From assembly GCA_944358255.1 (NCBI GenBank), contig CALVQQ010000002.1:3739-67738 (forward strand): a stretch of DNA of 64,000 bases, read 5' to 3'. The notes below the pieces were generated by a model. That model ran no database searches. It saw nothing but the letters and a program-made list of their open reading frames with translations, and was not told the DNA's origin. This DNA comes from an uncultured Bacilli bacterium. GTDB taxonomy: Bacteria > Bacillota_I > Bacilli_A > RF39 > UBA660. Each line of letters begins with the position of its first letter. The first letter of the stretch is position 1. Made by a program: the position numbers and the translations under genes. Positions 2,006 through 15,823 of the stretch are shown here, in pieces.

Positions 2006-3571
2006 TTGTCTAGTTATAATGGTTTTATGAATAAAAAAATTTTTACTGTAAAAGGGTATCTTTTGGATGATGAACAAATGAAAATAGTTAAAAGTAATGC
2101 TAAAAATATATTAGTAATAGCTGGTGCAGGTAGTGGAAAAAGTTTGACTATTGTTGGTAAAATTAAATATTTAATTGAAGTAAAAAGGTTAAGGGAAGAA
2201 GAAATTTTGTGTATTTCTTTTACTAATGATTCTTGTAATTCTTTAAAATCAAGTATTTTAAAAGAATTGGGATGTAATGTTGATGTTTTAACGTTTCATA
2301 AATTGGCTTTAAATATTTTGAAAGATAATAATTTAAATTATTTTGTAGCAGAAAGTAACTTGCTTGATTTTCTTGTAAATGAGTTTATTAATTATGTTTT
2401 TGTTGATGATCATTTTTATAAAAACCTTGTTTTAAAATATTTTGGTGTTAGTTTATTGTTTAGAAATGTTAATGCTTTATATAAAAGTTTATTAGTTACA
2501 AGGAAAAAAGATGTTGATATGTTAATTAATAAAATTTGCACTTTTATTAGGCTGTTTAAGTCAAGTGGAAAAGATTATGAACATTTAAACAAAATTTTCA
2601 ATAAGGAAAAAAATAAGTATTTTAATAGGAATAATGTCTTTTTTTTGATTTTAGTTGTTAAATTAATGTATGAATATGAACTTGAATTATGTTCGGCTGG
2701 TAAGGTTGATTTTGATGATATGATAAGGATTGCTGCTAAAATAGTAAATGAAAGTGGTAAAAGTTATAAGTATAAGTATATAATCATTGATGAGTTTCAA
2801 GATACAAGTTTTGCTAGATATAATTTGATTAAAAGTTTGCTAAATAAAACAAATGCTAATTTTATGGCGGTTGGTGATGATTATCAATCTATTTATAGAT
2901 TTTCAGGATGTGAACTTGGGTTGTTTTTAAATTTTAATAAGTTTTTTGATGATTGTAAAATTTATAAAATTCAAACAACTTATAGGAATAGTTTGGATTT
3001 AGTTAAAATTTGTGAAAAGTTCATTAAGATAAATAAGGACCAGTTAGATAAAAAGTTAAAATCAAATATAAGTTTGTGTAAGCCAATAAAGATAATTTAT
3101 TATATTGATCAAAGAAAAATGTTTTTTAATTTGATTAAGTATTTATATAATTTGGGTGTACGAAATATAATGGTTTTAGGTAGAAATAATAGTAATTTGT
3201 ATGACGTTTTTAGTGATGTTTTTTTTATTGGTAATGAAAATTTTTTGTCTTTAGTTGGTTTTGATGATTTAAAGATAAGGTATTTAACTGTTCATAAATC
3301 AAAAGGTTTGGAAGAAGAGTGCGTTATTGTTGTTTCTTTAATTGATGATGTGTGGGGTTTTCCTAATAAGAAAAAAAATGAAAGGATTTTTAATTATGTT
3401 TTACTTGGTAAAGAAAGATGTCCTTATTCTGAGGAACGTAGACTTTTTTATGTTGCTTTAACGAGAACAAAATCTTATGTTTATTTGTTAGTTGATAAAA
3501 GAAATCCTTCTATTTTTGTAAAAGAGATAATAAAAGAGAATTTTCAAAATATTGAAATTCTCAATATTTAA
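2006..3571 (+). CDS. UvrD/Rep-family helicase-like protein (short form)
   Basis: Walker A AGAGSGKS, DEFQDT motif II and VALTRTK motif VI. The track start is TTG; ATG at 2027 (MNKKIF) is the more likely start. Confidence 0.7.
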   Translation: MSSYNGFMNKKIFTVKGYLLDDEQMKIVKSNAKNILVIAGAGSGKSLTIVGKIKYLIEVKRLREEEILCISFTNDSCNSLKSSILKELGCNVDVLTFHKLALNILKDNNLNYFVAESNLLDFLVNEFINYVFVDDHFYKNLVLKYFGVSLLFRNVNALYKSLLVTRKKDVDMLINKICTFIRLFKSSGKDYEHLNKIFNKEKNKYFNRNNVFFLILVVKLMYEYELELCSAGKVDFDDMIRIAAKIVNESGKSYKYKYIIIDEFQDTSFARYNLIKSLLNKTNANFMAVGDDYQSIYRFSGCELGLFLNFNKFFDDCKIYKIQTTYRNSLDLVKICEKFIKINKDQLDKKLKSNISLCKPIKIIYYIDQRKMFFNLIKYLYNLGVRNIMVLGRNNSNLYDVFSDVFFIGNENFLSLVGFDDLKIRYLTVHKSKGLEEECVIVVSLIDDVWGFPNKKKNERIFNYVLLGKERCPYSEERRLFYVALTRTKSYVYLLVDKRNPSIFVKEIIKENFQNIEILNI

Positions 3572-4695: not shown

Positions 4696-4845
4696 TTTAT
4701 ACCTTCCTTTCTTATATTTTTATTATAGCATTTATAAGTATTTTTATTTATTTTTACTTTGTTTGTTTACATTTTTTTACTAATTATAGTGGTTATAAAT
4801 ATCACATTTATTTATTTTTCATACATTATTATAGAGGTGAAATGC

Positions 4846-5127
4846 ATGAATGATAGGGTGTTAACTGGAATTGTAATAGATGCTGGGCATGGCGGAGTAG
4901 ATGGCGGAGCTTCAGGAAATGGTATAGTTGAAAAAGATTTAAATTTGTTAATAAGTACTTATATGTATGATCGATTTAGAGAATTAGGTGTGCCAGTTAA
5001 AATGACTAGAACTACGGATGAAACTTTAGATTCATCTGAAAGGGTGGATAGAATTCTTGACGCTTATGGGAATGGGAAAGATGTTATAGTTATTTCTAAT
5101 CACATAAACGCCGGAGGACATACTTAG
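4846..5127 (+). pseudogene. 5' fragment (about 93 aa) of a cwlC-like N-acetylmuramoyl-L-alanine amidase (Amidase_3), interrupted by the inserted element
   Basis: RBS AGAGGTG lies 6 nt upstream of ATG 4846. IVIDAGHGGVDGGASGNG matches the CwlC N-terminus (IDPGHGGSDPGATGNG). The fragment ends ...ISNHINAGGHT*, in the middle of the conserved SIHVNSGGGTG block. Confidence 0.7.
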
Positions 5128-5290
5128 CTCATACAACGATTAAATTTATAAGGGTATTAAGACGGCTATATTTAAACAAAAAGAATTTGTTAATAAAGCT
5201 ATACTAAAATTAAGTTTTTAAACTTAAAAAGGCTGTAAAATAAAGAATTTTTAGTATATTTAACTTCAAATGTTAAAAAACACCAAATTT

Positions 5291-5301
5291 TGCTGTATAA
5301 T
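5291..5301 (+). promoter_or_regulatory. Extended -10 promoter element TGCTGTATAAT upstream of the 576-aa gene
   Basis: TGnTATAAT match 70 bp upstream of ATG 5373. No convincing -35 was seen. Confidence 0.3.
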
Positions 5302-5313
5302 GTATTTAAGAAT

Positions 5314-5356
5314 AGCAGTATCATTCTTTTTTAAGATGGATACTGCTTATTTTTTT
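5314..5356 (+). terminator. Terminator-like hairpin with T-run in the leader of the 576-aa gene (possible attenuator, or a terminator used in the circular form)
   Basis: 9-bp stem AGCAGTATC/GATACTGCT with a 16-nt loop, followed by TATTTTTTT, located between the -10 and the RBS GAGGTG. Confidence 0.35.
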
Positions 5357-5372
5357 GAAGTGAGGTGTAGTA

Positions 5373-7103
5373 ATGGCAAAGAAAAAATATGAAACACAAT
5401 TCAGTATATACAAAGTTGATTATAGTCACTCTGTAAAATATTTAAAAGAGGATCAAGGAATTGAAAGTAAAACATATGAAGAACTAGAAAAAAATATTTT
5501 AGATACAATTAAAGGCATGATTTTAAAAAAAGAAAGAAATGAAGTAGTTGATGTAAGAAATGATTACTTTAAAGGTGTAGTTTTTAGAACTTATCATTAT
5601 CCAACTTGGTATGGTGTGATTAATAGCATCGTAGATGAAAAAATTGATATATCAAATACTCATATTTCTTATGTCTTATCTTATTTAAAAGATGATAATC
5701 TGTTTTTACTAACTGGAGGATTAGGAAGTAATTATATTACAGAATTTACTCAAAAAAATTACGGCTTATATTTATTGCCTAAAATGTTGAAAGAAAATAG
5801 TCCTGTCATAAAATCGGTTTTGGAAAATAAAATGTCTGGCAATAGGCTGTCTAGTAAACATTCAAATAGAAACGTAACAACAATTAATACAGAAAATGAT
5901 ATGAGCTCAATATTTAGAGAACTTTCTTTAGAAATTGATAAAGAAATAATAAATAAATTAGGTATAAATACAGATGAAAATAAAAAGTCAAAGAATTTAA
6001 ATCTTATTGCAAAGGATTCCTTCGTTATAAGAAAATCTATAACAATAGAGAATTTAATGAAGGTTTTAGATCAACTGATAAAGGTTGAAAAAAATAAAGA
6101 TAATTTTTCTTTAGGTTATTTTGTTGATGTGAAAAAGCACGGATATTCTTCAAAAAAATTAAATGAACTTCTTATTAAAATTTTTATTGAAAAGAAGATT
6201 GATAATTTTATTTTAGTAGGGGATGACTATTCAGATTATTGCGTAGGTGGAAATAGATATGTTATTAAAGATGTGGATGAGAAGGTTATATATGAAAAAG
6301 AAAGTCCAATAACAATAGAAGACTTATTTGAAAATTGCCTGCCTGACAATATTACAAAGTCAGCAATAGAAAAATTATTAAAATATAATTTAACTGTTTA
6401 CAACGATACAGATACTATTTTGTTCCCTATAAAACTAAAACAAAGTATACAAGGATACATAGAAAATGAAGAAAAGATTCCTTTTTTTCTCTTTAACGGT
6501 AATTGGTTAATGTTTGATACTAATTATATTGATAACCTTGATAATGAGTATAAGAAAAACTATATTGATTTGATTAAAATAGACAAAAAATTGGCTGATA
6601 TTATTACTAATAAAAATCCTGAATTAACAGAAGATTCATATAATAAAGAATTTTCACAATCTAATGATCTTATAGTTGCACATACTGTTTTAAGCAATAA
6701 TATAGAACTTGCTGATTTAATTTATTTTGATAATGATAATTTATATTTGATACATAACAAGTCAAAATTTCAAGGTAATGGTGCTAGGGATGTATTAAAT
6801 CAGATTTTAACTTCAGCAGAATTTATAAATCACTATCTAATGGAAAAAGATAAAAGAGAAATTTTTGGTAAATATTATCATGATATTATAAAAAAATATC
6901 CCAATAATAATAAAATTAAAACTTTAACAGAAGATGAATTTGTTGACTTATTTAAAAAGCCTAACATATATTATATTGCAGGTTTTATGGAAGGACTTTC
7001 AGATAGCTCTGAATCAAATTATGCCAAGTATATTACTTTGGATGCTAGTAAAAAACTTAAAGAAAAAGGATATAATCTATTATTATTTAATATAAATTAT
7101 TAG
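5373..7103 (+). CDS. Hypothetical 576-aa protein of unknown function; candidate accessory or defence gene on the island
   Basis: Long uninterrupted ORF with RBS GAGGTG and its own promoter. No P-loop, HNH, HEPN or other family signature was recognisable by eye. Confidence 0.75.
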   Translation: MAKKKYETQFSIYKVDYSHSVKYLKEDQGIESKTYEELEKNILDTIKGMILKKERNEVVDVRNDYFKGVVFRTYHYPTWYGVINSIVDEKIDISNTHISYVLSYLKDDNLFLLTGGLGSNYITEFTQKNYGLYLLPKMLKENSPVIKSVLENKMSGNRLSSKHSNRNVTTINTENDMSSIFRELSLEIDKEIINKLGINTDENKKSKNLNLIAKDSFVIRKSITIENLMKVLDQLIKVEKNKDNFSLGYFVDVKKHGYSSKKLNELLIKIFIEKKIDNFILVGDDYSDYCVGGNRYVIKDVDEKVIYEKESPITIEDLFENCLPDNITKSAIEKLLKYNLTVYNDTDTILFPIKLKQSIQGYIENEEKIPFFLFNGNWLMFDTNYIDNLDNEYKKNYIDLIKIDKKLADIITNKNPELTEDSYNKEFSQSNDLIVAHTVLSNNIELADLIYFDNDNLYLIHNKSKFQGNGARDVLNQILTSAEFINHYLMEKDKREIFGKYYHDIIKKYPNNNKIKTLTEDEFVDLFKKPNIYYIAGFMEGLSDSSESNYAKYITLDASKKLKEKGYNLLLFNINY

Positions 7104-7420
7104 TAGTTTATGAAGGTATAGAATAATGCATTTACATTTTATAGACTGCAAAACAAAGAAAAATAATATATTGATTATCTTGGCTTAATAATTAATTAAT
7201 ATTTCAATGATGAGATAATATAAATAATTTAAAGTATTAAAAATGTGAATTAAATGATACTAAATATAAGTTTAATTTTCCCAAAGAATTATAGTAATTT
7301 GAGTTGATGAAAAATCACTCTTTTTTTTTATGAGATTTGTTGAATATAAATTAATTTTAATGTATAATTATATTAACTATTAAGCTAATAAGCATATATG
7401 TTAATATAATGGAGGAATTT

Positions 7421-7789
7421 ATGGCTAAAATCACTTTAGGAAATTTTATTGTCAAAAAGAGAAAGAATATGAAATTGTCGTCTAGGCAATTAGCTTTAGC
7501 ATGCGAAGTAACACCAGCATATATGAATGATATAGAAAAAAGTAAAAGAATCCCATCTTCTGAGGTATTAACAAGAATAGCTATGAAATTAAAGTTGGAT
7601 GAAAAAGAAGTTTATCAATTATTTGATTTAGCAGTTGATGATAATAAAGGTAAGGTTTCTTATGATATTGCAGAATATATAATGAATAATGATGAATTGC
7701 GACAATGTATTAGATATGTAATAAAGATTAAAGATAATAGTATATGGAAAAAAATGTTAAACGAAATTAATCAGGAGGGCCAATTATGA
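7421..7789 (+). CDS. XRE-family HTH transcriptional regulator, a putative controller (C) protein of the R-M module
   Basis: HTH segment SSRQLALACEVTPAYMNDIEKSKRIPS. GGAGG RBS at 7411-7415 favours ATG 7421 over the track start at 7409. The stop overlaps the m5C methyltransferase start (ATGA at 7786-7789). Confidence 0.7.
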   Translation: MAKITLGNFIVKKRKNMKLSSRQLALACEVTPAYMNDIEKSKRIPSSEVLTRIAMKLKLDEKEVYQLFDLAVDDNKGKVSYDIAEYIMNNDELRQCIRYVIKIKDNSIWKKMLNEINQEGQL

Positions 7790-8793
7790 AAAAGTATACA
7801 TATATAGATTTATTTGCAGGAGCGGGAGGAATGTCATTAGGTTTTAATAATGCTGGCTTTAAAAATCTTTTAGCAATTGAATGTAATAAAGATTTTGCTG
7901 AAACTTATAAAAAAAATTTTCCTAAACATAATTTGCTAATTGACGATATAAAAAATGTAACTGAAAAACAAATTCGTGATATAATTAAAAATGAGAGGGT
8001 AGATGTTATAATAGGTGGACCACCTTGTCAAGGATTCTCAATTGCAGGAAATATTGGTAGAAATTTTATTGATGATGATAGGAATAGGTTATTTAAAGAG
8101 TTTGTAAGATTTGTTAAAATTATTAAACCTAAAATATTTGTTTTAGAAAATGTAGCTGCTATGGAAAGACACAATAAAGGAAGGACTATAAAAGAGATAG
8201 TTTCATCTTTTGCAGCAATTGGTTATGATATAAAGTACAAAGTTCTTAATGCTGTTAATTATGGTGTTCCACAAGAAAGAAGAAGAATATTTATTGTTGG
8301 TACACTTGGAGAAAATAGATTTGAATATCCTAATAAAGATAATAAGATTGTAACTATAAAGGAAGCAATTGATGATTTGCCTAAATTAGGTAATGGAGAA
8401 AATAGTAATATTCCTAATCATACAGCTATGAAACACTCTGCCCAAATGTTAGAAAAAATGAGTTACGTTTCAGATGGTGGTAATAGAAATGATATACCAG
8501 AAAAATTAAGACCTAAGTCGGGAGACAGTAGAAAATATATAAGATATAATAGTAAAAAACCGTCTTTTTGTGTTACTGGAGATATGCGAAAGATATTTCA
8601 TTATAGTCAAAATAGAGCTTTAACATGCAGAGAATTAGCTAGACTGCAGACTTTTCCAGATACATTCATATTTGTAGGTAATGCCGGCAAAGTTCAACAG
8701 CAAATTGGTAATGCAGTTCCAGTATTATTGGCCAATAAAATAGCTTTACAAGTAAAAGAGGTGTTAGATCATGAGCAAATATCCGAAGATTAA
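7786..8793 (+). CDS. DNA (cytosine-5)-methyltransferase
   Basis: Motif I DLFAGAGGMSLGF, motif IV GGPPCQGFS, motif VI FVLENV, and motif X QIGNAVPV. Confidence 0.9.
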   Translation: MKKYTYIDLFAGAGGMSLGFNNAGFKNLLAIECNKDFAETYKKNFPKHNLLIDDIKNVTEKQIRDIIKNERVDVIIGGPPCQGFSIAGNIGRNFIDDDRNRLFKEFVRFVKIIKPKIFVLENVAAMERHNKGRTIKEIVSSFAAIGYDIKYKVLNAVNYGVPQERRRIFIVGTLGENRFEYPNKDNKIVTIKEAIDDLPKLGNGENSNIPNHTAMKHSAQMLEKMSYVSDGGNRNDIPEKLRPKSGDSRKYIRYNSKKPSFCVTGDMRKIFHYSQNRALTCRELARLQTFPDTFIFVGNAGKVQQQIGNAVPVLLANKIALQVKEVLDHEQISED

Positions 8794-9784
8794 TTATATT
8801 GGAAATAAAAATAAGTTAACTGATTGGATAGTGGATAATTTTCCATTTAAAGAGGGGACTGTTTTAGATCTTTTTTGTGGTGGCTGCTCAGTATCTTATG
8901 CTTTAAAGGAAAAAGGTTATAGAGTATATTCAAATGATGCTTTATATTCAAATTTTGTTTTAGCAAAAGCTATTATAGAAAATAGTAATGTAATCTTAAA
9001 AACTGAAGATTTTGATTTCGATATCCCGAAAAAAGAAATATTAAAAAAGTATAAAGAAATTAGTTTTTTAGAAAATAGACTATATTTTCCAAATGAAGTA
9101 GAAGAATTAGCTGAGTTAGTATGCAAATCAGAAAAATTAGAAAACTATAAGAAATATTTATTTTTATCTTTAATTAGAAGATCGATGATTAGAAAAATAC
9201 CATATTCAAGGATGAATGTTCCTTGGGATCAAATTGTTAAATTAAGGGATGAAGATTATAGTTATGCTAAATATAAAAGAAGAAGAGCGTATCATAATCT
9301 GCCTTTTATAGACCATATTTATGATAATTTAGATAATTATAACGATTCTGTGTTTAATAATAATCAGGATAATAAAGCATTTAATAAAGATGCATTTGAA
9401 ATGATAAATAAATTGACTGAAAAGGTTGATATTATTTACATGGATCCACCATATCCTGCTACGATGAATAAATATGGAGATTTTTATGGAATGTATGATA
9501 GTATTTTTAATAAAGAGATTAATTATATAAATTTTTCAGAGAACAATAAATTTTTGGAAAATTTAGAAAAATTAATTGTGAAATGTTTGCCTAAAACTAA
9601 ATATATAGTCATTAGTGAAAACAATAAAACAAAACCATCAATTTCAGAGATTAATAATATGTTAAGTAAATATGGTAAAGTAGAAATAAAAGAAAAAAAG
9701 CATCAATACAAAGTTACAAATAAGGAAAATAAAAATGAAACTGTTGAAGTGTTAATTATTTTGCAAGTTAAAGAAAACAAGTAA
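8771..9784 (+). CDS. DNA N6-adenine methyltransferase, D12/Dam-like class (DPPY)
   Basis: N-terminal YIGNKNKL (Dam WAGGK-like), FCGGCSV motif I, and DPPYPAT motif IV. It overlaps the upstream methyltransferase by 23 nt. Confidence 0.7.
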   Translation: MSKYPKINYIGNKNKLTDWIVDNFPFKEGTVLDLFCGGCSVSYALKEKGYRVYSNDALYSNFVLAKAIIENSNVILKTEDFDFDIPKKEILKKYKEISFLENRLYFPNEVEELAELVCKSEKLENYKKYLFLSLIRRSMIRKIPYSRMNVPWDQIVKLRDEDYSYAKYKRRRAYHNLPFIDHIYDNLDNYNDSVFNNNQDNKAFNKDAFEMINKLTEKVDIIYMDPPYPATMNKYGDFYGMYDSIFNKEINYINFSENNKFLENLEKLIVKCLPKTKYIVISENNKTKPSISEINNMLSKYGKVEIKEKKHQYKVTNKENKNETVEVLIILQVKENK

Positions 9785-9812
9785 TCACTAGTCTTGATTA
9801 CTTGTTTTCTTT
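9770..9812. terminator. Bidirectional intrinsic terminator between the convergent methyltransferase and restriction endonuclease genes
   Basis: Perfect 18-bp inverted repeat AAAGAAAACAAGTAATCA / TGATTACTTGTTTTCTTT with a 7-nt loop, spanning both stop codons. Confidence 0.7.
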
Positions 9813-10973
9813 ATCAATTTCATCTTTATAAAGATTATCAACTTCTTCTTTACATTTTAATGCTTTTTCTTTGAATTTATTTCTATGCCATTCTAAATAT
9901 TTTAATCTGTCGGGATTAAGTAATTTTTTATCTAGTTTAAAAGTACTAATCCACTGTAATATATCAATATCATGGATTTCATAGTCATTAACCAGTACCA
10001 TACCATCATTATCAAATGAAATATCATATTTATCAAAATATGCATCTACTTGAGTAGATAGTAAAAGCCCGTTATTATAGTCGTATGCTTCATCAATGTT
10101 TCCCTCAGACAAACATATACTGGAGTCTTTTATATGTGAATGTACCAATCCTTTCAACTCTTTTTTTTGAATATAACAAACTTTTTTTCCAAAAAATTTT
10201 ATAGACTCTTTATCTAAGCCATCTTTGTAAATACTATAAAGAATAGGATCTCTTTTTGTATCAACTACTATATTGCTTGGATCAATGAACCAAACTCCCG
10301 TATCTTTATTTGCAGAAATATTTGGCATAAGGTTTAAAAAGTAAATTAGATAATTAATTTGATTATATTTCTTTTTGTCAAATTTAATTGTAGAAGCATA
10401 TTTATATTGTTCTTCTAATTCATTTTTTGTCAAATATCCCTTACTGATTTGTTCAATAGGAGTAACCATTAATGCAATTACATCAATTTTTGATAATTTC
10501 TTTTCTGGGTGATATACTAACGTTTTTAAAAGAAAATCAATTTCTTTTCGATTAGTATTATCTTTTGAATAAGAAGAACAAAAACTAGATGAAGTGTAAA
10601 AGATTTCTGAAAATATATTTCTTTTTTGATTCTGGTCGTCAGCAGATAAAAATTTCCTTGCAAGTTTATGATAACCATTATAAAAAGGCTTAACAAATCC
10701 TAACTTTATAAATTGATTTATTGATTTTCTTGTAGAAGCTTGATCTCGTTTTTGATAAATTCTATTTATTTTTTCTTGAAGTTCTTTATTTAATTTTTCA
10801 TGTTTACAATTTTCACTTAAAATTTCTCTGTTTTCATCAATAAAATCTAAAATTATTCTAAGTGTATTATTAAATCTTAAGTCAAAGATATCAATATATT
10901 CAAGAGTAAACGACCAATATTTATCATATTGCTGATTTTCAATTTTCTTTTTGGTACGAAATAATTTGCTCAT
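9798..10973 (-). CDS. HNH-family restriction endonuclease (HNH_2-like C-terminal domain)
   Basis: C-terminal LVHSHIKDSS...NGLLLSTQVDAYFDKYDISFD matches the AHI...NGLLL...H/D..FD pattern of HNH restriction enzymes. It is convergent with the two methyltransferases. Confidence 0.6.
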   Translation of the reverse strand: MSKLFRTKKKIENQQYDKYWSFTLEYIDIFDLRFNNTLRIILDFIDENREILSENCKHEKLNKELQEKINRIYQKRDQASTRKSINQFIKLGFVKPFYNGYHKLARKFLSADDQNQKRNIFSEIFYTSSSFCSSYSKDNTNRKEIDFLLKTLVYHPEKKLSKIDVIALMVTPIEQISKGYLTKNELEEQYKYASTIKFDKKKYNQINYLIYFLNLMPNISANKDTGVWFIDPSNIVVDTKRDPILYSIYKDGLDKESIKFFGKKVCYIQKKELKGLVHSHIKDSSICLSEGNIDEAYDYNNGLLLSTQVDAYFDKYDISFDNDGMVLVNDYEIHDIDILQWISTFKLDKKLLNPDRLKYLEWHRNKFKEKALKCKEEVDNLYKDEIDKENK

Positions 10974-11238
10974 GTTATTTCACCTCTATTAAATTATAAC
11001 ATGAAATTAACAAAATTAATAATTTCTAATAGCAAAACTAAAAAATTAGGCTAGTTTGAGCACAAAAAAGCATTTTTTTGCATCACTTAGTCATTGACTT
11101 CTATTGGTCAAGTGGTAAAATATAGTAAAATGAAATAATTAGCTGGTGAGAACTATGTCTATATTATTTCATTTTTTTGTTATCTTTATCTCGGTTTAAT
11201 AACTGGGATTTTTTTGTGCACAAATTTTGATAACAAAT

Positions 11239-11437
11239 CCTACTATCCTACTATTTTTTTGTATTTTTCAAAAGTAGGATGGTATATAAGATATTAATTA
11301 TCTTATAAAATAAGAATAAAACTACCGATGATCCTTAATATCAACCTATATAGTAGGATTAATTTCGTAAGTACGAAATAAGAATGGCACCATTAAATTT
11401 CCTTAGTTTATAAGGAATTTTTTAGTTTATGGTGCCA
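11239..11437. promoter_or_regulatory. Palindrome-rich intergenic region with a repeated 8-mer, lying between the restriction endonuclease gene and the HTH/recombinase genes
   Basis: CCTACTAT tandem pair at 11239-11254. The inverse AGTAGGAT occurs at 11273-11280 and 11352-11359. Palindrome ATAAGATA-TTAAT-TATCTTAT at 11286-11306. TTCGTA-AG-TACGAA at 11364-11377. 10-bp inverted repeat ATGGCACCAT/ATGGTGCCAT at 11384-11393 and 11428-11437. Confidence 0.3.
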
Positions 11438-11512
11438 TCTTCTTATGCTCCTAATTTATAATTTGATATTTTTAAAGGGAAATTCATCCTAATTAGAAAG
11501 GAGGTATTATAA

Positions 11513-11776
11513 ATGGATTATGAACAATATATAAAAGTACCATTAGCAGTAATAACAGATAAAAATCTTAAATCTAGTTCTAAAGTTTTATTTAGCTTAT
11601 TGATAATACTAGTACAACAAGAAGGATATTGTTTTGCTGGAAATGATTATTTAGCTGAAAAGTTAAATACAAGTAATAGAACTATTTCAAGATTATTAAA
11701 AGAATTATCTGACATAGGTTATATTAAAATGGAATTTAAACATAAATTTCAAAGAAAAATATATATTATTAAATAG
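11513..11776 (+). CDS. Small HTH-domain protein of 87 aa (regulator, or candidate recombination directionality factor)
   Basis: HTH-like segment GNDYLAEKLNTSNRTISRLLKELSDIGYI. RBS AAAGGAGG. It lies upstream of the recombinase. Confidence 0.55.
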   Translation: MDYEQYIKVPLAVITDKNLKSSSKVLFSLLIILVQQEGYCFAGNDYLAEKLNTSNRTISRLLKELSDIGYIKMEFKHKFQRKIYIIK

Positions 11777-12204
11777 CCAAAAATATCATAACTTTAGACA
11801 ATGTTATTTAAGTCAATGTACATGTTTTTCTTTTTCAATGGTACTCTGTGTCTACAATAATATAATAAATATAATATAAAAAATTTAATTATATAAATTT
11901 AAAATATTTAAATAAGTTTTAAATATTAACATACTTAATCAAAATTAATTAAGGAAAGGAGTGGATATAAGTATGAAAAAAATATCAATAATGAATAATT
12001 TAAACATAAATTTAAATAGGTGGTTTAAATATGGAAGGAGCCTATTTGAATAATATTTCATTTAAAGATCTTATTTTAAAATATCTTATCGAAGAGATAA
12101 TAAAAGAAACAAAAGGAGAATTATCTAATTAATGATTTGCATATTTAATTTTATGATGCTATCATGGATGAGTCTTAATACCCGATTAAAAGAAGGAGGT
12201 AAAA

Positions 12205-13872
12205 GTGTATAATAAATCGGGAATAGATTTCAATGTAGGAATCTATATAAGATTATCTCAAGAAGATAAAGATAAAGATAAAAAATATGAATCTGATAGT
12301 GAAAGTGTAATTAATCAAAGAGAATTATTAACTAATTATGTTAAAAATAATAATTTTAACTTAATAGGAGAATATGTTGATGATGGATATTCTGGCACTG
12401 ATTTTGAAAGACCTGGTTTTCAAAAATTAATTGAAGATATAGAAGAAAAAAAGATTAATTGTGTAATAGTAAAAGATTTATCAAGATTAGGTAGAGATCA
12501 TATTAAGACAGGGTATTATATGGAAACATATTTTCCTGAAAAGAACGTAAGGTTTATATCTATATTGGAATCATACGATAGTTTTAAAAATCAAGCTAGT
12601 AATGATTCTTCAACATTTATAATTGCATGTAATGATTACTATAGTAAACAAAATTCTATTAAAATTAGAAATGTATTAAATGAAAAAAGAAAAAGTGGCA
12701 AATTTGTAGGAAGTTTACCATGCTTTGGATATATGAGAGATCCTGAAGATAAGGGACATTTAATACCAAACCCAGAAACTGCTCCTATAGTTAAACAAAT
12801 ATTTGAATGGAGAAAAAATGGTATTGGTCCATCTAGAATAGTTACTATGCTAAACGAAAAAGGATATCCAACACCTAGTGGATATAAAAAAACAAATTAT
12901 TCTACTAGGCTAATAGTAAGAGATACATGGAACATTTCTTCTGTAAAAAAGATATTAAGCAATAGAATATATACTGGAGATATGGTTCAACATACTCAAA
13001 CTAAAGTTAATTATAAATCTAAGAAAAAAATCACACTAGACCAAAGTATGTGGATGATAGTAGAAAATACACATGAAGCATTAGTTGATAAAGAAACATT
13101 TAAATATATTTCGAATTTAATAAAACAAAATAAAAAAGATGTTAGGCCTAAAAACAGAAGAATAATTAGGGATTTAGAAGGACTTCTATTTTGTAAAGAG
13201 TGTGGTAACAGATTAAGTGTTTTATATAGAAAAAATTTAGATTACTGGAGTGTTAATTGCAATAGATACTCTAGAGACCCATTAAGAAAAAGATGTGAGC
13301 CACACTTTTTTCCTTATAATTATTTAGAAGATCAAATAGTAGAAAAAATAAAATCAAACATAAAAATAAAAATTGAAAATTTAAATATAGAAGAATTAAA
13401 TAAGAGAGTTGCTAGTGAAGTACGAAAGCAAACTAAAGATATAAATAAAAATATAAGTTCTTTAATGAGTGAAAAAGAACAGATAACAAGTAGATTAACT
13501 TCATTATATGAAGATAAATATAATGGTATTATTAATGCAGATACTTATATGGAATTAGCAAAACCCTTTGAAGAAAAGTTACACCAAATTAATGAAAGCA
13601 TTAACAATGATAAAATAAGGGAATATGAAATAAAAAATAAATTAAAAGAATTACCTGATTATACCAAAAAAATAAAAAAGCTATTAGATTTAAATAAGCC
13701 TAGAAAAGAATTAATACATACATTAGTAGATAAAATAGTGATAGATAAAAATAGAATTATAACGATTAAATATAAATATGGTGTGATACCAGACTGTACG
13801 TTTGAATATCAAAATTTAAACTTAGCTCGTAACCCTTATGGTAGAAAAGGAAAGAATCAATATAATAAATGA
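12205..13872 (+). CDS. Large serine recombinase (resolvase/invertase catalytic domain plus recombinase and zinc-ribbon/coiled-coil C-terminal region)
   Basis: N-terminal VGIYIRLSQED catalytic serine motif and DLSRLGRD. 555 aa. C-terminal Cys cluster CKECGN...CNRYS. GTG start with GGAGG RBS. Confidence 0.9.
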   Translation: MYNKSGIDFNVGIYIRLSQEDKDKDKKYESDSESVINQRELLTNYVKNNNFNLIGEYVDDGYSGTDFERPGFQKLIEDIEEKKINCVIVKDLSRLGRDHIKTGYYMETYFPEKNVRFISILESYDSFKNQASNDSSTFIIACNDYYSKQNSIKIRNVLNEKRKSGKFVGSLPCFGYMRDPEDKGHLIPNPETAPIVKQIFEWRKNGIGPSRIVTMLNEKGYPTPSGYKKTNYSTRLIVRDTWNISSVKKILSNRIYTGDMVQHTQTKVNYKSKKKITLDQSMWMIVENTHEALVDKETFKYISNLIKQNKKDVRPKNRRIIRDLEGLLFCKECGNRLSVLYRKNLDYWSVNCNRYSRDPLRKRCEPHFFPYNYLEDQIVEKIKSNIKIKIENLNIEELNKRVASEVRKQTKDINKNISSLMSEKEQITSRLTSLYEDKYNGIINADTYMELAKPFEEKLHQINESINNDKIREYEIKNKLKELPDYTKKIKKLLDLNKPRKELIHTLVDKIVIDKNRIITIKYKYGVIPDCTFEYQNLNLARNPYGRKGKNQYNK

Positions 13873-13970
13873 TTTATCACTATTAATTTAGTGATTTTTT
13901 TATATAGCTAATTTGGTATTTTCGACTTTTGGGTTTATAATGAATTTAATCAAAGGAAAGGAGGAGTACT

Positions 13971-14222
13971 ATGAATCGAGAATATAATGAGAATATGAAT
14001 AAAATTTTTATTGATGGATTAAAAATATACTTAGAATCACATCTAAATGAAAAAAATAAAAAGGTATATAAAGCAGTGGAATCTTCAGTTAATTTTTTAG
14101 AGTCAACAACAAAATTAACTCCAGAAGAATCGAGAGAATATCAAGATATTATAATAAAAATAGTAGGTATTGATGTTATTCAAAGGGTATTTAATAATGT
14201 AACAACTGGTAGTATACGATGA
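13971..14222 (+). CDS. Hypothetical 83-aa protein at the right edge of the island (candidate recombination directionality factor)
   Basis: ORF with RBS AGGAGG that ends about 15 bp before the predicted attR junction. No recognisable domain. Confidence 0.4.
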   Translation: MNREYNENMNKIFIDGLKIYLESHLNEKNKKVYKAVESSVNFLESTTKLTPEESREYQDIIIKIVGIDVIQRVFNNVTTGSIR

Positions 14223-14231
14223 ACGAGCTAA

Positions 14232-15377
14232 TCTTGTGGTGGAGATGGTGCTGAAGTAATATATGCTCTTAGAAATACTAGTACTTTATCTTCTAAAATA
14301 CTTAATGAGTTAGAAAAAGAAGGTCAAAATATTAGAAAAAATTATCAACAAAGATTGCCAAGTAATCCTTCAAAAGATTATTATTTTATTCATAGAGAAA
14401 CGCCTAATACTGAAGCAATAATTGTTGAATATGGTTTTTTAGATAGTTCTAAAGATGATGTTAATCAATTAAAAAATAATTATAAAGATTATGCGGAAGC
14501 CGTTGTAAGAGCCGTTATGGATTATAAAAATTTAAATTATATAGCGCCTGTAGATAGTGGATATTATACGGTACAGAAAGGTGATAGTTTGTGGAGTATA
14601 GCAAATAAATATGGTATTACAGTAGATGAATTAAAAAAACTTAATAATTTAAGTAGTAATATTATAAATGTAGGGCAGACTTTAAAAGTCCAAAAAGAAA
14701 ATGAAATTGCGCCAAGCGATTATCTAATTTATACGGTACAGAAAGGCGATAGCTTGTGGAGCATAGCAAATAAGTATGATACAACGGTTGAAACTATAAA
14801 GAAACTCAATAATTTAAGCGGAACAACTTTACAAATAAATCAACAATTATTAATTCCTAAAGAAGAGGATTTAGATATAAACGTTGGCGAAGATAGTCAA
14901 ATTATCTATAAGGTTAAAAGTGGCGACAGTTTATGGAAAATTGCCAATAGTTATGGTATAACAGTAGATGAACTAAAAAAAGCAAATAATTTATCATCTG
15001 ATTTATTAAGCATTAATCAAGAACTTATTATTCCTGTTAAAACAACGACTGTTGAGCCTGATGAAGGAGAAGAAATTGATGAGATTAAATACGTTGTAGT
15101 TAAGGGTGATAATTTGTACAGTATAGCTAATAAATATAATGTTACAGTCGATGAAATAAAAGAAGCAAATAAGTTATCTTCAAATATTTTAAGTATTGGT
15201 CAAATTTTAGTAATTCCTGGCACAAAAGATTATGCTAATTATACTGTACAAAAAGGTGATAGTTTATGGAAAATTGCTAATAAATATGGTGTTACTGTTA
15301 ATGATATAATGAAAGCAAACAATTTAAATAGCAGTAATTTATCTATTGGACAAGAATTAATAATTCCAACAAAATAA
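14232..15377 (+). pseudogene. 3' fragment of the cwlC-like amidase: the rest of the Amidase_3 domain plus five LysM repeats
   Basis: The frame opens at 14232 (SCGGDGAEVIYALRN...), continuing the Amidase_3 alignment (GGGTGFESYIY in CwlC). Five LysM units follow (Y.V..GDSLW.IA.KY..TV...). The M at 14355 in the ORF track is internal. Confidence 0.7.
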
Positions 15378-15400: not shown

Positions 15401-15823
15401 TTAGTGTAATTCTTTACAAACTCCTGGATCAGGTTGGTAAAAACAATGGCTTTTATATCTTCCAGAAAGTGTTTGACCATACCATGTGGTTTTGCAAGAT
15501 GATGTGCCAGAGGGAGCGTAAAACCATAGAGCATTTGTTGCCGGATGGTAATACTCACCTTTTAATACTCTTTCTGCAAGTGATTTCTCTTTTGTGGTTG
15601 CAGAACTGTAAAACAATGAATTATTTATACCACTAAATTGATTGTTTTGATATATTACATCAGTAATTGTCCTTAAATTTGAAAAGGTTAAGCAATCTGC
15701 GATGGCCCTGTTAACTATAACATTTCCTACCATCAGCATGCCTAAGTCGCCTTCACTTAACGCTTCTGCTCTCATTAATCTTGCACACAAATCAAGTTCT
15801 TTATTAGTGTAATTAATTAGCAT
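15401..15823 (-). CDS. SleB-type cell wall hydrolase (Hydrolase_2 catalytic domain; spore cortex-lytic family)
   Basis: LCARLMRAEA...GMLMVGNVIVNR...YQNNQFSG...WYG pattern of the SleB C-terminal domain. Confidence 0.75.
   Translation of the reverse strand: MLINYTNKELDLCARLMRAEALSEGDLGMLMVGNVIVNRAIADCLTFSNLRTITDVIYQNNQFSGINNSLFYSSATTKEKSLAERVLKGEYYHPATNALWFYAPSGTSSCKTTWYGQTLSGRYKSHCFYQPDPGVCKELH

Follow-up and report, generated by a model that had tools for sequence, protein, structure and literature searches.

A DUF6119/TIGR04141-family gene in a restriction-modification island as a candidate single-gene immunity system of predicted sensor-nuclease type

The gene and its family

The stretch of DNA analyzed here (the window; 64,000 nucleotides (nt) of contig CALVQQ010000002.1, assembly GCA_944358255.1, from an uncultured Bacilli bacterium) carries on its plus strand a gene for a 576-amino-acid (aa) protein at positions 5373–7103 (ATG at 5373; the stop codon at 7101–7103 is included), which we assign to the DUF6119/TIGR04141 family. 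A first-pass annotation of this DNA had noticed a long, well-formed open reading frame (ORF) here, and it proved to be a real gene under purifying selection. A ribosome-binding site (RBS; GAGGTG, 5359–5364) lies 8–9 nt 5′ of the ATG, the N-terminus (MAKKKYETQFSIYK) is kept among homologs and pairwise dN/dS values against homologous copies on other islands were 0.10–0.20. No competing ORF of at least 80 aa could be found overlapping 5373–7103. The identical protein occurs on at least 13 metagenomic contigs, a 99% identical copy is present in a GTDB genome (a metagenome-assembled genome of an uncultured gut 'Bacilli bacterium') and approximately 180 close homologs with 59–100% identity could be identified. 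No relatives turned up when 50,697 phage and 72,556 plasmid records were searched by tblastn, using two family members as queries, or when IMG/VR was scanned with a pattern from the close-subfamily alignment. Thus, a phage-encoded or plasmid-borne origin is unsupported.

Scans of the window protein against Pfam (E ≤ 10), NCBIfam, PADLOC, PHROGs and PDB (phmmer) gave no matches; it falls below both hidden Markov models of its family, PF19614 and TIGR04141, even at E ≤ 10. Its relatives P0005, P0010, P0036 and P0093, which share 69–76% identity with it over 100% of the length, matched PF19614 with E values of 1e-17 to 1e-22 and scores of 61–79 bits, against a cut-off of 27. An exhaustive profile search with the query subfamily returned 653 clusters at 50% identity, most of them full-length proteins of 570–610 aa. 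TIGR04141 ('sporadically distributed protein') was matched by 6 out of 10 sampled members (E ≤ 2.4e-8, best 1.6e-34), five of which were above the 35-bit cut-off, and the RefSeq name for the relatives is 'DUF6119 family protein'. Judged by this transitive full-length homology, the window protein is a divergent member of DUF6119 (PF19614)/TIGR04141 from an AT-rich genome. It should be noted that it had initially been offered as something 'not previously described', which does not hold, because the family is already catalogued as a domain of unknown function in Pfam and NCBIfam and named in RefSeq. A search of the literature under the names DUF6119, PF19614, TIGR04141 and 'sporadically distributed protein' turned up passing mentions in annotations only, and one literature remark describes TIGR04141 as 'commonly associated to mobilomes'. 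No match was obtained when the models of PADLOC-DB v2.0.0 were run at E ≤ 0.01 against the window protein and 10 diverse family members. Neither the literature that could be searched nor PADLOC reports a function, a fold assignment or a defence association for DUF6119.

Predicted structure and putative active site

An AlphaFold model built with a shallow alignment was mediocre (predicted local distance difference test (pLDDT) of 70); the model built with 90 sequences (20–76% identity) was confident, with a pLDDT of 93.1 and a predicted template-modelling score of 0.81. In this model, the N-terminal ∼410 residues (5373–6605, plus strand) form three alpha+beta modules, and residues ∼412–576 (6606–7100, plus strand) form a PD-(D/E)xK-like domain with a restriction-endonuclease fold, whose core matches the alpha-beta-beta-beta-alpha-beta arrangement of that fold. 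The 90-sequence family alignment (20–76% identity) was used for all conservation counts. The only invariant columns (90/90) were E445, D448, K463 and R472, and Q477 (89/90) and E420 (88/90) were nearly so. All of these but E420 fall within a putative catalytic segment, E445-x-[A/C]-D448 ... [H/C]461-x-K463 ... R472-[D/E]473 ... Q477, encoded at 6705–6803 on the plus strand. His occupies position 461 in 68 sequences and position 437 in 48, the alternatives being Cys (22) and Asp (41), respectively; no clear coupling could be observed when the covariation of these two positions was examined. In the model, the conserved residues are located on a helix (420–425), two strands (449–452 and 456–465) and a second helix (468–489), and the Asp-to-Lys spacing is 15 residues (D448 to K463).

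In PD-(D/E)xK enzymes, motifs I–IV (E ... D ... (D/E)xK ... Q) are expected on an alpha-beta-beta-alpha arrangement. Here, the invariant D448 and K463 and the nearly invariant E420 and Q477 would stand at the expected motif positions, as placed by the helices and strands of the model, and the (D/E) position is occupied by His/Cys. Enzymes of the Cfr10I type carry relocated active-site acids; by analogy, the invariant E445 may substitute for the canonical second acid. Bse634I, HamA, EcoT38I, Cfr10I, CdiA-CT, Cas4, Cap4, NucC, Can2, SduA and NgoMIV are among the proteins named for the fold of the model. Foldseek of the high-confidence model against PDB gave no significant full-length or nuclease-domain match, the single result being a local match to METTL16 VCR (KA1-like). 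The 90-member profile returned noise from PDB sequences (STN1 at E 0.53), and when the family profile was compared by hhalign with HamA, a Cap4-type nuclease and the cleavage domain of FokI (the FokI sequence having been verified against 1fok/2fok), the catalytic region stayed unaligned, with probabilities <1%. The nuclease assignment is based on fold and motif geometry, because sequence-profile methods miss the relationship; on this footing we consider it likely that the C-terminal domain is a PD-(D/E)xK-type nuclease.

The initial reading of the translation had recognized no ATPase P-loop, HNH, HEPN, TIR, SIR2 or methyltransferase motif. This was correct in that no Walker A or GxGxxG motif could be found in the protein, and incomplete in that conservation and the predicted fold reveal the PD-(D/E)xK-like site. 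Of the remote-homology and structure searches that it had proposed, the Foldseek and profile searches against PDB were negative for the nuclease domain, and the model shows the restriction-endonuclease-like C-terminal domain that had been missed. A P-loop ATPase was rejected since Walker A is absent, and HNH and HEPN were rejected since the HNH-like and RxxxxH regular-expression matches were trivial and fell off the conserved columns. With regard to the N-terminal part, conserved residues include W79, S99, TGGxG (114–118), G131, G156, R166 and W378. Its modules resemble only weakly the TBP/KA1-like domains that bind nucleic acids or ligands, the weak matches being TplEi, METTL16 VCR, DUF4468, the RnlA NRD and the RNase HIII N-domain. 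The N-terminal ∼410 residues are a putative sensor or nucleic-acid/substrate-binding region.

Leader, neighbourhood and island

Immediately 5′ of the RBS, a terminator-like leader hairpin followed by a U-run occupies 5308–5356 on the plus strand. Its arms, AGCAGTAT(C)...(G)ATACTGCT, lie at about 5308–5349, and the T-run abuts the RBS. The hairpin has a folding energy of −19.7 kcal/mol (z = −3.6), and none of 200 shuffled sequences folded equally well. It is kept 5′ of homologs with 60–76% protein identity (in the window, L006, L011, L014 and L020–L023), in which the flanking intergenic DNA has diverged, and in L024 (∼9955–9990) an unlike sequence forms an equivalent hairpin and T-run at the same position. 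No Rfam family was matched by the hairpin. Its earlier recognition was thus borne out by folding energy, shuffles and conservation, and the promoter claimed with it fared differently. The sigma-70-like consensus match TTAAAA-17-TATAAT is present at 5273–5301 on the plus strand, but the region contains 28 promoter-like matches of equal quality against 25 ± 5.4 expected in shuffled sequence. The window is very AT-rich (GC content about 0.20–0.34), and as AT-rich DNA gives such hexamers equally often when shuffled, this promoter is indistinguishable from chance. The hairpin and T-run extend up to the RBS, so that there is no space for a promoter 3′ of the hairpin. Placed between the RBS and any promoter further upstream, a hairpin of this terminator-like kind would probably keep basal expression low; it might act as an attenuator, or it might insulate the gene from transcription reading through from the interrupted host gene.

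The suggestion of a defence role had been based on guilt by association with neighbouring genes, and this was supported when 15 distinct contexts of homologs with 21–100% identity were examined. In about 12 of the 15 (a raw count), recognized defence genes were present within 8 kb, mostly directly adjacent, and they included restriction-modification (R-M), Abi, Hachiman, McrBC, GmrSD, PD-Lambda-3 and PtuA-like genes. Type II R-M genes are the neighbours in the window, L001-5 and L018. The P0014 context consists of an amidase fragment and the family gene followed by Fic, HipA and type I R-M genes. P0005 has a PtuA/AriA-like ATPase and a DnaG-like protein on its 5′ side and Fic, MazE and type I R-M genes on its 3′ side, and P0116 has two N6 methyltransferases and AIPR. 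More R-M genes could be identified in L024/L038 (NgoFVII-type R-M 5′; DpnII-type R-M and GmrSD 3′), L030 (a type IIG enzyme and a specificity subunit) and L032 (LlaJI-type R-M, Vsr and HaeIII R-M). A type I restriction endonuclease-like protein and Hachiman HamA/HamB lie directly 5′ in L027. L033 contains a relaxase, a serine recombinase, AbiEi/AbiEii and a Cap4-type nuclease, and L034 contains a PD-Lambda-3_A homolog, a UvrD/S24 protein, McrBC and HepT/MNT. The gene is followed in L023 by a Fic-sized 502-aa gene and genes the size of type I HsdR, HsdM and HsdS, their families being taken from pooled counts, and in L020 by a Fic-sized 501-aa gene that starts 2 nt 3′ and is not individually annotated, no other gene being recognized there. 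L037 has four serine-recombinase genes without defence genes. Only L036 contains housekeeping genes alone, and the homologs do not sit consistently in housekeeping operons. No partner is conserved throughout these contexts, in keeping with a unit of one gene.

In the closest subfamily, a Fic gene of ∼501 aa often follows the DUF6119 stop codon by 2–13 nt and seems to be translationally coupled to it. Genes of this size lie 3′ of the family gene in L006 (9725–11230), L011 (9738–11246), L020 (7690–9192) and L023 (11725–13230), with a Fic domain identified in L006 and L011. Further on, L006 and L011 have HipA or MazE and type I R-M genes, and L023 has genes of type I R-M size. No such Fic partner accompanies the window copy. 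In L011, immediately 5′ of P0005, a PtuA/AriA-like AAA_15/21 ATPase gene is followed by a gene for a 298-aa DnaG-zinc-ribbon protein (5162–7703 for the pair); this may be a Septu/PARIS-like two-gene system, although PADLOC does not class it as complete.

Comparison of the window island with related islands showed that nucleotide homology runs from the attachment (att) end to 7097, the end of the gene, and then stops, and that in L014 and L024 it begins only at the leader hairpin. Because homology is limited by the leader or att end on one side and by the gene end on the other, leader and gene behave together as one separate cassette, with exchangeable cargo behind it.

The island that carries the gene in the window is ∼9.1 kb long (5117–14241) and could be recognized by a split amidase gene and a large serine recombinase. 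The 5′ amidase part (4847–5127, within an upstream ORF at 4759–5127) covers positions 1–78 of the 174 positions of Amidase_3 and ends in '...HINAGG'. The frame picks up again at ∼14237 ('GGDGAEVIYALRN...'), and the 3′ part (14232–15377) covers positions 85–172 followed by five LysM repeats. The approximate attL is at GGAGGA (5113–5118) and attR at GGAG (14241–14244); the element-end sequence is conserved in common with L006, L011 and L020. No match was obtained for an uninterrupted 'empty-site' amidase that was sought in JGI metagenomes with a gapped pattern, so the boundaries are drawn from the split gene only. Ordinary chromosomal genes lie on both flanks. The split amidase on either side confirmed that the gene is the first of a defence island, as first annotated. 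It is not, however, the 'sole non-R-M cargo', since the island also encodes an 87-aa winged helix-turn-helix protein, the large serine recombinase and an 83-aa ORF. The recombinase (12205–13872) has XisF and CcrB among its best NCBIfam matches. The 87-aa protein (11513–11776) is HTH_36/DnaD-like, with similarity to the N-terminal parts of replication initiators of phages (PHROGs E ∼1e-12). The 83-aa ORF (13971–14222), located between the recombinase and attR, matches no family and is a possible candidate for a recombination directionality factor.

The type II R-M module (7409–10973) is a separate transcription unit and contains a C-protein-like helix-turn-helix (HTH) gene (7409–7789), an m5C methyltransferase (7786–8793), an N6A methyltransferase (8771–9784) and, on the minus strand, an HNH restriction endonuclease (9798–10973). 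It is parted from the DUF6119 gene by a 305-nt spacer with a weak hairpin and T9 (∼7301–7329), a promoter-like TTGAAT-17-TATAAT (7340–7368) and a 20-nt imperfect palindrome (7367–7386/7391–7410) that lies directly 5′ of the HTH gene at 7409 and overlaps the promoter-like site. From its sequence, the layout at 7340–7410 is as expected of a C-protein operator (C-box) that would control the R-M module. These spacer features argue that the DUF6119 gene is a transcription unit of its own.

In spore-formers, sporulation genes are known to be interrupted by 'intervening elements', which serine recombinases excise, and the island that splits the amidase resembles such elements by analogy. A gene for a SleB-type cortex hydrolase (15401–15823, minus strand) lies near the split amidase. 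In L001, a second, different serine-recombinase element is located immediately 5′ of the same amidase fragment, which identifies the site as an insertion hotspot. Just outside the island, at 2006–3571, is a gene for a 521-aa UvrD/helicase IV-like protein that matches the PADLOC models of GajB and a DRT-associated helicase at E 1e-42 to 1e-47. Its DAG-kinase-like and DNA-alkylation-repair-like neighbours had no PADLOC matches, and it is therefore probably a housekeeping protein and not Gabija.

A candidate immunity gene and its comparison with known systems

The reading that we favour, with a probability of roughly 0.55, is that the DUF6119 protein is a stand-alone sensor-nuclease acting on foreign DNA, with the leader hairpin limiting its expression. 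The protein would act alone, combining the N-terminal sensor part with a C-terminal variant PD-(D/E)xK nuclease (E445-x-x-D448 ... [H/C]461-x-K463 ... R472 ... Q477) directed at invading DNA. It might work as a type IV restriction-like enzyme, an option considered because the gene has no cognate methyltransferase, or as a trigger-activated abortive-infection effector. The varied neighbours and the lack of a conserved methyltransferase partner are consistent with the predicted type IV mode, whereas the terminator-like leader and the neighbouring Fic, HipA and AIPR genes are indirect hints of abortive infection. Leader hairpin and gene ride as a self-contained cassette at the leading end of islands, ahead of swappable R-M or other defence cargo. 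We infer from this combination a credible, predicted candidate immunity gene with a putative defence or abortive-infection role. A broader claim, to which we give somewhat less than an even chance, would be that DUF6119/TIGR04141 is a new widespread single-gene anti-phage/anti-plasmid system, in which an unseen sensor of three TBP/KA1-like modules is joined to an E-x-x-D...[H/C]-x-K nuclease and is silenced by an attenuator, and whose leader-plus-gene cassette seeds the first position of R-M islands.

Other explanations were also considered. An unlikely one is that the protein belongs to the mobile-element backbone, either as an excision or directionality cofactor of the serine recombinase or as a MOBC-like relaxase or nickase with a restriction-endonuclease fold that serves in mobilization. 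There is precedent for both, since XisH/XisI work with XisF in excision of the cyanobacterial fdxN element (PMC4874684) and MOBC-type relaxases have a restriction-endonuclease fold (PMC6499999). However, in many contexts neither a serine recombinase nor a relaxase lies within 8 kb (as in L036, in L032 behind LlaJI, in L027 behind Hachiman and in L034 next to McrBC), the unrelated islands L014 and L024 share just the gene and its leader with the window island, the protein of 576 aa with three extra domains is far bigger than XisH or typical directionality factors, and the plasmid records searched gave no family relatives.

It is also improbable, in our view, that the gene is a selfish or addiction module of toxin-like type, or encodes a dead nuclease fold that merely binds DNA, and is kept for island stability. 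The replacement of the (D/E)xK acid by His/Cys speaks for this. A terminator-like leader is also what might be seen for a tightly repressed toxic gene, and in several relatives the Fic-domain gene follows at 2–13 nt with HipA or MazE genes nearby. Nevertheless, no conserved small antitoxin-like partner accompanies the gene, and sequences at 20% identity keep E445, D448, K463, R472 and Q477 with little or no exception, so that a working active site is favoured. The odds are similarly slim for a role in assisting or guarding the neighbouring R-M system (a back-up nuclease on R-M inhibition, as PrrC fires when the R-M enzyme EcoprrI is inhibited, or a helper for an incoming R-M cassette): R-M genes are the commonest neighbours, often directly adjacent and co-oriented, but the adjacent types are unrelated (I, II, IIG, LlaJI-like and IV) and R-M is absent from some contexts (which have Hachiman, AbiE or nothing instead), so that a specific physical partnership is unlikely, and the R-M operon of the window is 305 nt away with its own promoter-like site and C-box-like palindrome.

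If the sensor-nuclease reading is true, ∼650 clusters labelled 'DUF6119' would gain a function, and a single-gene system would be added to catalogues such as PADLOC, from which the family is now missing. The N-terminal region, which has no solved analogue, could bring to light a new mode of foreign nucleic-acid sensing, and the His/Cys substitution would widen the known variation of PD-(D/E)xK chemistry. The combination of a conserved first gene and swappable R-M cargo on a serine-recombinase island in an amidase gene bears on how defence islands are assembled. The DUF6119 gene makes a good and clearly defined candidate to validate by experiment.

Compared with known systems, the window protein shares its full-length architecture of ∼570–610 aa with PF19614/TIGR04141, that is, with its own family. 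XisH and MOBC relaxases are alike in the nuclease fold, and the DUF6119 island is driven by a large serine recombinase; they are unlike in size and domain content, and the DUF6119 family is widespread without nearby recombinases or relaxases. Single-protein or effector PD-(D/E)xK defence nucleases are represented by Mrr/MspJI-like type IV enzymes, Shedu SduA, Hachiman HamA, Cap4, NucC and Can2. None of the 11 DUF6119 members matched any PADLOC model, and the hhalign comparisons with HamA and Cap4 were negative; unlike these nucleases, DUF6119 has no associated CARF/SAVED domain, helicase partner or CD-NTase, and no solved analogue of its N-terminal architecture was found by Foldseek against PDB. 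The type IIS and IIS-like enzymes FokI and N.BspD6I have N-terminal recognition domains and a C-terminal PD-(D/E)xK cleavage domain. They differ in that no sequence or profile similarity could be observed, His/Cys replaces the second acid in DUF6119, and the DUF6119 gene has no conserved adjacent cognate methyltransferase. The N-terminal domains D1–D3 of FokI are winged-helix domains, whereas those of DUF6119 are alpha+beta modules. A further nuclease in a defence island would be little surprise to specialists, and in mechanism, a sensor joined to a nuclease effector within such an island would vary a familiar kind rather than be categorically new.
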